A stretch of DNA of 11,392 bases, taken from contig JBIPSI010000064.1 in NCBI GenBank assembly GCA_044070495.1, forward strand, positions 1 to 11,392. The letters run 5' to 3'. The notes beneath the pieces were generated by a model that had not been told where the DNA came from, made no database searches, and was given only the letters and a program-made list of their open reading frames with translations. This document shows, piece by piece, positions 2,183-11,392 of this stretch. This DNA is from Spirulina sp. GTDB taxonomy: Bacteria; Cyanobacteriota; Cyanobacteriia; Phormidesmidales; Phormidesmidaceae. Made by a program: the position numbers and the translations under genes. Numbering within the stretch: the first letter of the stretch is position 1; each line of letters starts with the position of its first letter.

Positions 2183-3610
2183 GTGCATCGACTACAATCT
2201 TCCCGCTGGCGTTTGGGGATCGGGTTTGGCCTAGGGCTGTTGCTGTTTGTGGGCCTCAGCAGCCAGTTTCGTAGCGACGCCAAGCTTCCGACCCTCTCGC
2301 CATTGCCCCAGGATCCCTACATCCAAGCCTATTTCAACCAAAGTCAGGCCTCGGTCTACACCGACCCCTACCGCAACATCACCCGCTACGGCGATGATCT
2401 GGAACAGGTGATCATCGATGCCATCCACAGCGCCCAAACCTCCGTGGATGTGGCGGTTCACGAGTTTACCCTGCCGCACATTGCCCAGGCTCTCAGCGAA
2501 CGCCAAGCCCAGGGTGTGCGGGTGCGGGTGGTGGTGGAAAACAGCTACAGCACCCCCATGGCCCAGCGCCAAGGCAACGATTTTTCCTTTTTGGATGAGC
2601 ACGAACGCAACAAGGCCACCGCGCTGTATCAGTTCGTAGACCTCAACCAAGACGGCACCCTCAGCGCCGAGGAAATCGCCCAGCGCGACGCCCTCGCCAT
2701 CCTCGACCAGGCCCAAGTGCCCCGCATCGACGATACCGCCGACGGCAGCAAGGGCAGCGGCCTGATGCACCACAAGTTTATGGTGATCGATGGGCGGCGG
2801 GTGGTCACAGGTTCCGCCAACTGGACGATGAGCGACATCCACGGCGACCTTGGTACCGAAGAGAGCCGAGGTAACGCCAACGCCGTTTTGGTGATTGACA
2901 GCCCTAGCCTAGCCCAAACCTTCGCGGCAGAATTTGCCCTGCTGTGGGGCGATGGCCCTGGAAAAGCCGAGGACAGCCAGTTTGGTCTGCAAAAGCCTGC
3001 CCGTCCGGCCCAACGCGCCGCTGTGCCCGGTTCCACGGTGGAGGTGCAGTTTTCTCCCACCTCGTCCACCCAGCCCTGGGCCAACAGCGTCAATGGTCTA
3101 ATCGCCAAAACCCTGGGCCAAGCCACCCAGCAGGTAAACCTGGCGCTGTTTGTGTTTTCCGAGCAGCCCATCAGCAACCAGCTCTGGACGTTGGCCCAGC
3201 GGGGGGTTCCCATCCAAACCCTGATTGATCCGGGCTTTGCCTACCGCAGTTACAGCGAAGGGCTAGATATGATGGGCCTGAGCCTGCCCGACCACCGCTG
3301 CAAAATGGATGGCGAAAACCGCCCTTGGCCCACCCCCATCACCAGCGTCGGCACGCCCACCCTGGCCGAAGGCGACAAACTGCACCACAAATTCGCCGTT
3401 GTAGATGGCCTCACGGTGATAGTTGGATCCCAAAACTGGAGCAACGCTGCCAACACCACCAACGACGAAAACCTGCTGGTGATCCGCAACCCCACCGTCG
3501 CCGCCCACTTCCAGCGCGAGTTTGACCGCCTCTACGGCACCGCCCAACTCGGCCTCACCCCCCAGCTTCAGCGGGCCATCGACAACCAGCGCTCCCAGTG
3601 TGGCCTGTAG
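2183..3610 (+). CDS. Phospholipase D / nuclease superfamily protein with two HKD motifs (ComA/Slr0197-like, no C-terminal HhH domain), 475 aa
   Basis: HHKFMVID (2768-2791) followed by GSANW, and HHKFAVVD (3383-3406) followed by GSQNW. Basic-then-hydrophobic N-terminus (signal or anchor). EF-hand-like loop DLNQDGTLSAEE. GTG start. Confidence 0.88.
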   Translation: MHRLQSSRWRLGIGFGLGLLLFVGLSSQFRSDAKLPTLSPLPQDPYIQAYFNQSQASVYTDPYRNITRYGDDLEQVIIDAIHSAQTSVDVAVHEFTLPHIAQALSERQAQGVRVRVVVENSYSTPMAQRQGNDFSFLDEHERNKATALYQFVDLNQDGTLSAEEIAQRDALAILDQAQVPRIDDTADGSKGSGLMHHKFMVIDGRRVVTGSANWTMSDIHGDLGTEESRGNANAVLVIDSPSLAQTFAAEFALLWGDGPGKAEDSQFGLQKPARPAQRAAVPGSTVEVQFSPTSSTQPWANSVNGLIAKTLGQATQQVNLALFVFSEQPISNQLWTLAQRGVPIQTLIDPGFAYRSYSEGLDMMGLSLPDHRCKMDGENRPWPTPITSVGTPTLAEGDKLHHKFAVVDGLTVIVGSQNWSNAANTTNDENLLVIRNPTVAAHFQREFDRLYGTAQLGLTPQLQRAIDNQRSQCGL

Positions 3611-3708
3611 AGTATTGCTCTCGCTATTGTGTCGTTTTTTGTCGCAATTAAACTACAGCTTAAAGCCTATGAAGAACCGTAAACAGGCTTATTTTTGGCA
3701 ATCAATCA

Positions 3709-3717
3709 TGCTAGATT
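3709..3717 (+). promoter_or_regulatory. Candidate extended -10 promoter (TGcTAGATT)
   Basis: TG-n-TAGATT matches TGnTAnnnT in an AT-rich context and would place a TSS near 3724. No good -35 element. Confidence 0.4.
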
Positions 3718-3723
3718 AAACCT

Positions 3724-4075
3724 ATCGAAAGACAACTGAATAACCATACAAGCCTCGCTCTCTTTCTGAGGTTTCCCCAAAGAAAAAGCAGGCTGGTGAC
3801 AGGTTCACCAAACCCCAAAACCAACCTTGTTCAGTTCACTTAGAGACACTAACTTAGGCTGTTGCCGCGTTAAACATCTCGCCCTTTATGTCGGTCAAGA
3901 CATCGAACTCCAAGGTTTACTCACCCCTACGTTTGTCAATTCTTTGCTTGTTTCCTATTGCTTGCTCCTTGAGATAAGTAATTCAACCTGAAACACGGAC
4001 AAACTGAACCGTTGTTTTTCGCTAAATAAACTTCTAACGAAGGGTGGCCATGGCGGCTACCCTTTAGTTGTTTTT
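3724..4075 (+). ncRNA. Candidate structured non-coding RNA (~350 nt), family not recognised
   Basis: Lies between a candidate -10 and an intrinsic terminator. No ORF of 60 aa or more. Several hairpins and long-range helices are visible, and the G-U pairs favour the + strand. Confidence 0.45.
4040..4075 (+). terminator. Intrinsic terminator
   Basis: Stem AAGGGTGGCC (4040-4049) / GGCTACCCTT (4055-4064), 10 bp with one G-U pair that works only on the + strand. Followed by TAGTTGTTTTT. Confidence 0.7.
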
Positions 4076-4116
4076 GGGATGAATTTTAGATGGGTCTTAG
4101 GGGTATTTGCAGAAGC

Positions 4117-4145
4117 TTGAAAAGGACTTGTCAAAAATCTATGTT
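4117..4145 (+). promoter_or_regulatory. Candidate sigma70-type promoter
   Basis: TTGAAA (4117-4122) - 17 nt - TATGTT (4140-4145). Confidence 0.4.
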
Positions 4146-4188
4146 GGCTTGCTATTTCTTCAATCAGTACTATGCAAAATGACCACTA

Positions 4189-4215
4189 TTGGCTAGGGAA
4201 ACTTGGCTAGGGAAA
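4189..4215. repeat. Tandem direct repeat, 13 bp x2 (14-bp period)
   Basis: TTGGCTAGGGAAA-C-TTGGCTAGGGAAA. Confidence 0.85.
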
Positions 4216-4453
4216 TTATTTTCTGGGCAAACCCTGACTCGCTTAGTTCTTGATTGTCCCTTACCCCTAGCTCTGGTTGCCTGCCCCATCTCCCAAGTAC
4301 GTCGGGCGCAGCAAAGCGGAACCGAACCCCCGCCGACATAACCATGGGTTTGGGTGGCCGAGCCTGGGGGTTTGAGGTTATGGTAAGCCTAGGTAAACTC
4401 ATAATGACTTTACTTAGGTGTCCCCTGGAGTTTCCGTCGAGGGTGGTTGTCAT
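4193..4453 (-). CDS. Possible small hypothetical protein (86 aa)
   Basis: ATG start (MTTTLD), divergent from prlC with a 106-bp spacer, and GC-richer than the adjacent non-coding DNA. No recognisable domain. Confidence 0.3.
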   Translation of the reverse strand: MTTTLDGNSRGHLSKVIMSLPRLTITSNPQARPPKPMVMSAGVRFRFAAPDVLGRWGRQPELGVRDNQELSESGFAQKIISLAKFP

Positions 4454-9702: not shown

Positions 9703-11022
9703 CTACCGCCAAGCCGACCGCTCACAGGTGCGCCGCGCCAGCCGTGCGGTTTCATCGGTCTTGCTGTTGTCCACAAGGTAGGGGCGAATGCGGTTGCAGG
9801 TATAAGTCACCCAGGCTGCCCCTGGCTTCCACACTTGTCTCGCCCACAGTGTGCCATTTTCATCGAAACTGACGATAGTTTCCCCATTCGGGTTGATGCC
9901 AACAGAACTAATCGTTACCAAATGGTCTCGGAAGGGTGGCGCAATGGGACGACCCTGGCGATCCCACAGCCGCACCGCGCCATCCTTACTGCTACTGCCG
10001 ATAGTATTCCCATCCGGGCTGATGGCAACAGAACTGATCCAACCCTGATGGCCCCGAAAAGGCTCTCCGATGGGCTGGCCTCGGCGATTCCACATCCGCA
10101 CCGTGCCATCCTCACCGCCACTGATGATGGTCTCCCCATCCAGACTGAGAGCCACAGACCTAACCCAACCCTGATGGCCCCGAAAAGGCTCTCCGATGGG
10201 CTGGCCTCGGCGATCCCACATCCGCACCGTGCCATCCTCACCGCCACTGATGATGGTCTCCCCATCCAGACTGAGAGCCACAGAACTGATCGTTCCCGAA
10301 TGACCCGGGAAGGGTGGTGCGATGGGCTGGCCTCGGCGATTCCACAACTGCACTGTGCCATCCTCACCGCCACTGATGATGGTCTCCCCATCCGGACTGA
10401 AAGCTACAGAACTGACTTGATCCTGATGACCTTTGAAGGGCTCAGCAGTAGGATGGCCTTGGCGATCCAGCATCCGCACCGTGCCATCTTCACCACCAAT
10501 GACGAGGGCGTCCCCATTCGGGCTGCGTGCCTCAGGTAGAACCCAAGCTGGGCCCGATGGTGCAACGGGCTGGCCTTGGCGATCCCACAGCCGCACTGTG
10601 CCATCAGACCCTCCACTGATGATAGTTTCCCCATCTGAGCTAAGGGCCACAGACATGCCCCAACCCGAATGACCCTTGAAAGGTAGTGCAATGGGCTGGC
10701 CTTGGCGGTTCCACAGCCGTACCATGCCATCCAGACCACCACTGGCGATAGTATTGCCATCTGCACTAAGGGCCACAGACATGACCCTATCTGAATGCCC
10801 CTGAAAGGGGGGGGCAACAGGCTGGCCTTGGCGGTTCCACAGCCGTACCGTGCCATCCTCACCACCACTGACGATAGTATTACCATCCGTGCTGAGAGCT
10901 ACAGACGTGACCCTATCTGAATGCCCCTGAAAGGGAGGTGCAACAGGCTGGCCTTGGCGGTTCCACAGCCGTACCATGCCATCCAGGCCACCACTGACGA
11001 TAGTATTGCCATCTGCACTAAG
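9703..11022 (-). pseudogene. 5'-truncated WD40-repeat protein (about 9.5 repeats plus C-terminal Cys-containing tail)
   Basis: 42-aa GH...WD/WN repeats. Similarity starts abruptly mid-repeat (LSADGNTIVSGG at 11022). The in-frame 78 codons upstream overlap unrelated gene fragments and have no convincing start. The frame is open, so a translated chimera cannot be excluded. Confidence 0.8.
9950..11022. repeat. 126-bp tandem coding repeats (WD40 units) with high DNA identity
   Basis: 10039-10158 and 10165-10284 differ at 1 of 120 positions by eye. A second sub-family of similar units lies at ~10650-11022. Confidence 0.93.
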
Positions 11023-11170
11023 AGGATATTTGGAAAGTAGCAATTGGCACAGAGTGACCCGGAACGCAGAAAAGGCTTCCTCGGTATTAGGCTCAGAGTA
11101 ACGAACACTGTAGCTCCTTGGAAGCCATAGTTTAATTGCCTCCTTGTTAAGAGTACAGCATCCTCTCCTC

Positions 11171-11209
11171 ATCAAGAGCGGTTTTATCATCGTGACAATG
11201 GCGGTGTAA
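11171..11209 (-). pseudogene. Fragment resembling the C-terminal HNH motif of a group II intron reverse transcriptase/maturase
   Basis: LHRHCHDDKTALD matches the recalled cyanobacterial intron-encoded protein ending LLHRHCHDxKTAxD. Only 13 codons long. Confidence 0.6.
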
Positions 11210-11215
11210 TATGAA

Positions 11216-11341
11216 GCCGATACAGCTTGTACCCACAAACAGGGCATAGTCAGCAATACCGTTAGCCGTTGGCCATTCGGCGATCGCCATATTCTTCCCC
11301 TTAACGGGTCTTACGCCCTTGTCATGACGCAAGTTTTGGGA
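11216..11341 (-). pseudogene. hsdR: Internal fragment of a type I restriction endonuclease R subunit (EcoKI-like HsdR nuclease domain)
   Basis: SQNLRHDKGVRPVKGKNMAIAEWPTANGIADYALFVGTSCIG matches the HsdR LR..KG.RP..G.N.AIAEWPT...ADY.LFVG segment. Ends just before the expected EAK. Confidence 0.85.
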
Positions 11342-11343
11342 AA

Positions 11344-11391
11344 TCCAGAAACCAATAATAAATCAAGCATTCTGTGTGGTTCTTCTCGGCG
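11344..11391 (-). pseudogene. Fragment resembling tRNA hydroxylase MiaE, running off the window edge
   Basis: RREEPHRMLDLLLVSG resembles the MiaE segment R..EP.RLLD.LLV.GLIEARS and breaks before LIEARS. Only 16 codons are visible. Confidence 0.5.
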
Positions 11392-11392
11392 G

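Follow-up and report, generated by a model that had tools for sequence, protein, structure and literature searches.

In yeast, plants and mammals, stray mitochondrial DNA and retroelement cDNA are captured at breaks by end joining, a process that depends on the Ku/ligase IV pathway and leaves short unlinked fragments in tandem, with overlaps of 0-2 nt and filler bases at the joints. We know of no bacterial case in which three foreign fragments were captured, and DNA taken up by transformation enters cells single-stranded. Short fragments are also concatenated outside the cell, through blunt ligation or template switching while libraries are built or amplified; the chimeric inserts formed in this way are normally single and pruned. 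Our literature search on chimeric inserts found no directly matching paper. Two reports on natural transformers describe how short foreign DNA can enter genomes without long homology, by short-patch double or homology-facilitated illegitimate recombination, routes that need microhomologies or a homologous anchor and insert one segment (10.1101/2023.11.22.568220; PMC3240628). A preprint reports that foreign segments within contigs are common in MEGAHIT genomes, with 444 of 640 near-complete MAGs affected in simulated sets (10.64898/2026.10.15.759294).

We analyzed a window of 11,392 bp that makes up the entire contig C64 of a 5.31-Mb cyanobacterial assembly (74 contigs, 56.7% GC, 97% completeness and 1.18% estimated contamination). 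Its last 264 bp, positions 11129-11392, form a tail of three short pieces attached to the left end of an insertion sequence (IS). The tail resembles eukaryotic break capture in its tandem unlinked fragments, its minimal overlaps and its filler base, but no Ku or LigD was found in the host genome. It differs from the illegitimate recombination routes in having three segments that overlap by no more than 1 nt. With chimeric inserts it shares unrelated short pieces, homology-free joints, an extra base, DNA of a second organism and an unmatched end, although here the molecule was kept by the assembler as the sole continuation of the locus. As in the interspecies chimeras described in the MEGAHIT preprint, a foreign segment lies in a contig of an otherwise clean, near-complete genome; those chimeras are joins made by the assembler, whereas the pieces in the window are shorter than the k-mer and share no words (10.64898/2026.10.15.759294). 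The features of the locus are listed in Table 1.

Table 1. Features at the right end of the window (coordinates on the plus strand; strand of each feature as given).
Feature	Position	Strand	Remarks
nSTAND1-WD40 gene, 3' part (WD40 repeats, 126-bp units)	9703..11018	-	Pfam WD40 E 1.8e-91, 8 stretches
3-bp target-site duplication	11019..11021	.	TAA on + strand, TTA in gene orientation
IS5-family left end, 107 bp	11022..11128	+	terminal inverted repeat GAGGATATTT... and 5' leader to A,T of transposase ATG
Group II intron ORF tail, 84 bp with two shared end bases (11128-11211)	11129..11210	-	0 mismatches to donor records
hsdR internal piece, 130 bp	11211..11340	-	residues ~269-312 of 1128-aa Limnospira protein
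Filler base	11341..11341	.	in neither neighboring piece; donor records end at 11340 and begin at 11342
miaE internal piece, 51 bp, cut by contig end	11342..11392	-	0 mismatches to donor records

The initial annotation had described the tail as a patchwork standing in place of the 5' half of the WD40 gene, and the repeat array as entered in mid-unit. Neither the replacement nor the entry in mid-unit held. The 5' half of the gene lies at the end of contig C12, where an nSTAND1 NTPase domain (E 2.9e-116) and the first WD40 unit are followed by TTA and then by the right end of the same IS, and the IS sits exactly at a WD40 repeat-unit boundary. The TAA flank was found at one of five full left ends of the IS (on C64) and at one of six right ends (on C12); every left flank reads TNA, and each of the five full left flanks has its own partner among the six right flanks. 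When the IS is taken out with one of the duplications, ...SVAL joins SADGNT... in frame, with the repeat boundary intact. The unique TAA common to C64 and C12, together with the restored frame, indicates that one IS insertion split the nSTAND1-WD40 gene.

The ORF listed at 9703..11256 (517 aa) extends from the WD40 repeats through the IS end and the intron piece. This extension is spurious, its N-terminal ~80 residues being read-through of unrelated DNA. The internal repeats of the gene are 71-75% identical. The two units that flank the IS are 93% identical at the DNA level, compared with 66-75% for the gene's other units, a difference that points to duplication or conversion of a unit in the recent past. 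On C12, near 153625-153645, we observed a run of seven C where the in-frame unit of the window has eight, and the frame is shifted ~40 nt before the IS; this may be either decay of a dead gene by frameshift or a homopolymer error.

Most of the ~150 bp previously left unassigned consists of the IS left end with its terminal inverted repeat, preceded by the target-site duplication. Copies of the segment 11018-11128 with 98% identity lie at or close to the ends of contigs C2, C4, C44, C62 and C8. The other copies run on with GACATCAG... into the transposase, whereas the copy in the window breaks off at 11128. A full copy, on C8, encodes a ~260-aa transposase (263 aa) with DUF4096 and DDE_Tnp_1 domains (E 3.2e-28 and 2.6e-22). 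The element is ~940 bp long, begins with GAGGATATTTGG... and ends with ...AAATATCCTC, produces 3-bp TNA duplications, and is present in six near-identical copies that break the assembly. In its GAGGATATTT... repeats, its TNA duplications, its single transposase and its near-identical copies it is like the IS5-family elements with DUF4096 and DDE_Tnp_1, and it would fall in the group with a 3-bp TNA duplication, which we take to be the one named IS1031/IS427-type. The inverted repeat and target duplication of the family are both present in the window, but the copy there retains only nt 1-107 of a whole element, stops at the transposase start codon and has no codon beyond 'AT'. It is thus a remnant or an end, not a whole element.

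The window copy is identical to the active copies except for one private base, a C at 11082, which it has in common only with old diverged copies on C28 and C21. These (C28:3158-3268 and C21:63330-63423) are left-end remnants of a related IS at 82-85% identity, the one on C21 being followed by a scrap of the transposase region, and they indicate that decayed IS ends are common in the host genome. At C16:137345-137426 we also observed a miniature derivative of the IS, in which ~28 nt of left end are fused to ~55 nt of right end; it is MITE-like and has TGA flanks.

In the tail itself, much of what had been read from the letters was borne out. Three minus-strand frames had been reported, RREEPHRMLDLLLVSG at 11391-11344, a 42-codon AIAEWPT...ADY frame at 11341-11216 and LHRHCHDDKTALD at 11209-11171, and had been assigned to MiaE, type I HsdR and the HNH tail of a group II intron protein; the frames are where they were placed and all three family calls survived testing. 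The lower GC noted for this part was likewise confirmed (46.6% for 11129-11392, compared with 56.7% for the genome). By aligning contigs of four public runs on 10800-11392, we refined the boundaries of the pieces to 11128-11211, 11211-11340 and 11342-11392. The minus strand is the sense strand of all three pieces. The earlier remark that no repeats separate them is correct, as 10980-11392 contains no repeat, direct or inverted, of 9 nt or longer, and hence nothing between the pieces in that interval that would resemble a CRISPR-like, repeat-spaced record. Compositionally the tail lies at the 7th percentile of 264-bp windows (z -1.6 under a 4th-order model of the genome), a value that is not decisive. 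Pfam searches of the 61-aa and 26-aa frames of the tail returned no domain.

The intron piece consists of the last 20 codons of an intron-encoded protein (...LHRHCHDDKTALDEERMLYS*) and 18 nt more. It matches a 176-nt record in public runs X1 and X2 with 0 mismatches and, in these donors, ends just before domain V. Upstream in the donor record, ...NLQL completes the HNH motif, and downstream there is a domain-V-like hairpin, which by eye matches domain V of the intron in genome G336. To the end of the protein encoded by that bona fide intron the piece is 89% identical over 36 nt, at a site 35 nt before an RF00029 hit. The piece is multicopy in the donors, with variants and a depth of 100 to more than 2000. 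In the window, 10800-11392 gave no Rfam hit of any kind better than E 2.6, ribozyme domain V/VI included, and in the host genome we found no RF00029, no GIIM domain and no group II intron.

The hsdR piece matches positions 2509-2638 of records of 3702-3738 nt in runs X1, X2 and X9 with 0 mismatches. Its translation is identical at 42 of 42 residues to Limnospira/Arthrospira HsdR (residues 270-311). The exact 42-aa string is present in all 13 full-length members of the cluster and absent from one member of 790 aa; the next best protein is 88% identical. Beyond the piece, agreement ends at once: the window differs from HsdR exactly at the two ends of the piece, and it reads Ser where Limnospira HsdR has Thr. 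At the DNA level, 25 of the 401 genomes drawn from the class (host included) gave hsdR matches, all at 83% identity or less and all stopping at 11211 and 11340. No other copy of hsdR was found in the host genome. As a 130-bp internal fragment, the piece does not hold HSDR_N and helicase domains in one ORF. By tblastn it matches an HsdR-like gene of a congener (E 2.6e-9). In congener G005 (C45:1-2430) we observed an EcoKI-type hsdR that matches the Limnospira piece over 72 nt at 77% identity and whose DUF4145-like N-terminal frame has a stop ahead of it.

The miaE piece was found with 0 mismatches inside records of 3827-3944 nt in X1, X2 and X9. Its 17-aa frame is 75-87% identical over 14-16 aa to cyanobacterial MiaE (E 7e-10 to 1e-6; the database was small, with 26 loci), and these 17 residues are all that is present of the full di-iron hydroxylase of ~200 aa. 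The possibility that this frame belongs to an upstream stretch of hsdR displaced by a frameshift was considered and rejected, as the frame matches MiaE and a separate donor record. The host has an intact miaE of its own on C23, with no more than 9 nt in common with the piece.

Judged by sequence identity, the tail pieces are foreign to the host and their donor is Limnospira (Spirulina). The other 5.3 Mb of the assembly contain none of the 18-mers of 11129-11392. Each piece was traced without mismatch to contigs of runs X1, X2 and X9, which come from three unrelated studies, and in these runs the pieces lie on separate records with flanks unlike the window. They are thus not adjacent in the donor, in keeping with the earlier statement that such genes are not normally neighbors. 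The depths of the hsdR and miaE records are equal within each run (18.6/20.4, 38.2/39.3 and 38.3/40), which fits one donor genome, and the 42 of 42 residues of HsdR shared with all 13 full-length Limnospira/Arthrospira members give that donor its name. The same three runs have no cover on 10800-11127, and run X8 covers the WD40 and IS pieces and has none on most of the tail; these are contig data, in which holes prove nothing. As for the source run of the assembly, no public run contained more than 0.26 of the sampled words.

Other collections gave little. Exact words of the hsdR, intron and miaE pieces were absent from the genome contigs, viral contigs and metagenome contigs that were scanned, Escherichia coli genomes had no match to the tail, and plasmids yielded a single hsdR homologue at 77%. 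No match above 83% was found in the 401 genomes of the class draw, nor in four families (48, 90, 17 and 57 genomes).

The joints were checked for microhomology, and overlaps of 0-1 nt and one filler base were found. The IS and the intron piece share one T at 11128, the intron and hsdR pieces share one base at 11211, and between hsdR and miaE stands the filler base at 11341. No adapter motifs were found at the joints, and inspection by eye revealed no proximity-ligation scars of the GATC or AATT type there. With overlaps of at most 1 nt and pieces shorter than k, the joints were not made by the assembler and must pre-exist in the reads.

What the assembler contributed can be judged from the contig ends. 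A terminus-anchored match of at least 99% elsewhere in the assembly was found for 112 of 148 contig ends, and at 63 of these 112 the match is exactly 141 nt long, which identifies the assembly as a k=141 de Bruijn graph. The right end of C64 is one of 20 contig ends without a match in the bin. We viewed five other unmatched ends (C46, C15, C3, C11 and C43) and found tandem repeats or an IS start, and a patchwork in none. The last ~130 bp of C11 and the first ~140 bp of C43 both enter a heptamer microsatellite, (CCAATAA)n or its complement, and these two contigs are probably neighbors across a tandem array that exceeds the k-mer. The end of C3 (1-360) consists of tandem CTTCAACCTTCACCCCCTAAAC-like units and, after them, a long palindrome rich in AT. 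Within the window, far from its right end, GC drops to 40-47% over 0.7 kb (3600-4350), with genes of ~60% GC on either side. C64 is unbranched from the WD40 repeats through the C at 11082 into the tail, from which it follows that no competing branch with that C and the IS interior survived in the k=141 graph. If the assembler behaved as we assume, the absence of such a branch means that the chimeric form was not a rare minority among the reads of the locus and that reads passing normally into the IS were either missing or far fewer.

The anatomy of the tail, its origin from foreign DNA and its blunt joints are observations; where and when the joining took place we infer. At a rough probability of 55%, we favor a reading in which the tail is a chimeric molecule made in vitro and attached to the IS end. 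The IS landed at the repeat-unit boundary of the WD40 gene, leaving the 3' half and the left end on C64 and the 5' half and the right end on C12. Limnospira DNA would have been present in the same sample or laboratory, and during library construction or amplification short fragments, one from the host IS locus and three from Limnospira, would have been concatenated outside the cell. The k=141 assembler would then have carried the concatemer as a tip on the IS end.

Several observations argue for an origin in vitro. The tail is a contig end without a match in the bin and is 100% identical to another, much-sequenced genus; the real locus already has a perfectly matching partner, C12; and the host genome, in which no Ku, no LigD_N and no group II intron were found, shows no known machinery for making the tail in vivo. 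That foreign segments are reported to be common in MEGAHIT genomes points the same way (10.64898/2026.10.15.759294). Against an origin in vitro stand the requirement that the joints exist in the reads and the lack of any branch in the contig between the unique WD40 sequence and the tail, the C at 11082 included. This C is moreover the state of the old diverged copies and would fit an IS copy that is genuine, of greater age and perhaps really truncated. The joints are free of adapters, and the five other unmatched ends showed no second patchwork, so that there is no sign of a systematic artefact. We weighed four further readings and left a small share of the probability unassigned.

The first of these places the joining in the living host, where a break in the IS at the transposase start would have been sealed with three short environmental fragments of Limnospira DNA; the patchwork would then be chromosomal, as an insertion in the IS or a truncation of it. 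We consider such capture possible, though it is a less likely reading than a chimera and on balance a doubtful one. The initial annotation had proposed serial capture and ligation at a break, with a chimera among its alternatives. Its description of separate short foreign pieces, butt-joined, stands; for the ligation in the cell, its own alternative is now the more likely.

In favor of capture in the cell, the contig has no branch between the unique sequence and the tail, the locus-specific base at 11082 included, and the blunt joints, which show 1 nt of overlap and one added base, resemble end joining. The presence of ComEC in the host would make DNA uptake possible, and the donor is a cyanobacterium whose three pieces lie in the same orientation. 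Other observations count against it. Neither Ku (PF02735) nor LigD_N (PF13298) had a match in the 97% complete host genome, so that bacterial nonhomologous end joining was not found there, although the profiles were positive in controls (PF02735 in Bacillus subtilis and PF13298 in Methanosarcina acetivorans). The known transformation routes need an anchor or microhomologies and insert one segment, not three in tandem. With 0 mismatches in 265 positions, the event would have to be very recent. In the rest of the genome we saw no other Limnospira-like piece, no intron and no 18-mer of the tail, and the contig ends 51 bp into the third piece.

An RNA intermediate is an unlikely further source. 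A reverse transcriptase, for example that of a Limnospira group II intron or one used in vitro, would have copied intron RNA, jumped to hsdR mRNA and then to miaE mRNA, and the resulting cDNA would later have been linked to the IS end. When such enzymes switch templates they leave 1-nt overlaps or one extra base, and the joints fit this. The three pieces are sense on one strand, so that the plus strand from 11129 onward is antisense to all of them, and the first template would be an abundant intron RNA of the donor (depth 100 to more than 2000, compared with 19-40 for single-copy DNA). A common orientation of three pieces is, however, expected by chance in one case in four, and the copy begins just upstream of domain V and not at the 3' end of the intron. 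Copying of RNA would leave the joint to another organism's IS unexplained, and nothing indicates that the library contained RNA.

A pure assembly misjoin, in which k-mers shared with Limnospira contigs of the same metagenome led the assembler into them, is improbable. The assembly is a k=141 de Bruijn graph with the join at a repeat, and the preprint reports interspecies chimeric contigs as frequent in such assemblies (10.64898/2026.10.15.759294). An assembler chimera should show a shared word of k-mer length at the joint, and none was found: three successive joints within 264 bp share 0-1 nt only, each piece (84, 130 and 51 nt) falls short of k, and none of the tail's 18-mers recurs in the rest of the bin. 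Nested deletions, an alternative in the initial annotation by which a larger transferred Limnospira block was whittled down to three remnants, would agree with the common orientation and the single donor genome and are very improbable, given that the pieces lie on different donor records at least ~1.4 kb apart, that one comes from a multicopy intron, that several deletions would be needed after a transfer too recent for any base change, and that a filler base is present.

The real biology at this locus is ordinary, an active IS having split an nSTAND1-WD40 gene, and the significance of the tail is low to moderate unless its junctions are confirmed in independent DNA. If the tail is an artefact, the matter is one of quality control: 264 bp from another genus stand at the end of a contig in a public genome whose contamination is estimated at 1.18%, and an ORF caller would report a bogus 517-aa "WD40 protein" that reads through the IS end and the scrap of intron. 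If capture in the cell is true, the tail would be rare and direct testimony that a bacterium mended a break with several pieces of DNA from another species. It would be a natural, repeat-less fossil of multi-fragment capture, whose fragments were possibly pre-joined as a template-switched cDNA of the intron reverse transcriptase. Such capture would have proceeded without the known end-joining proteins and would bear on how short environmental DNA enters genomes.
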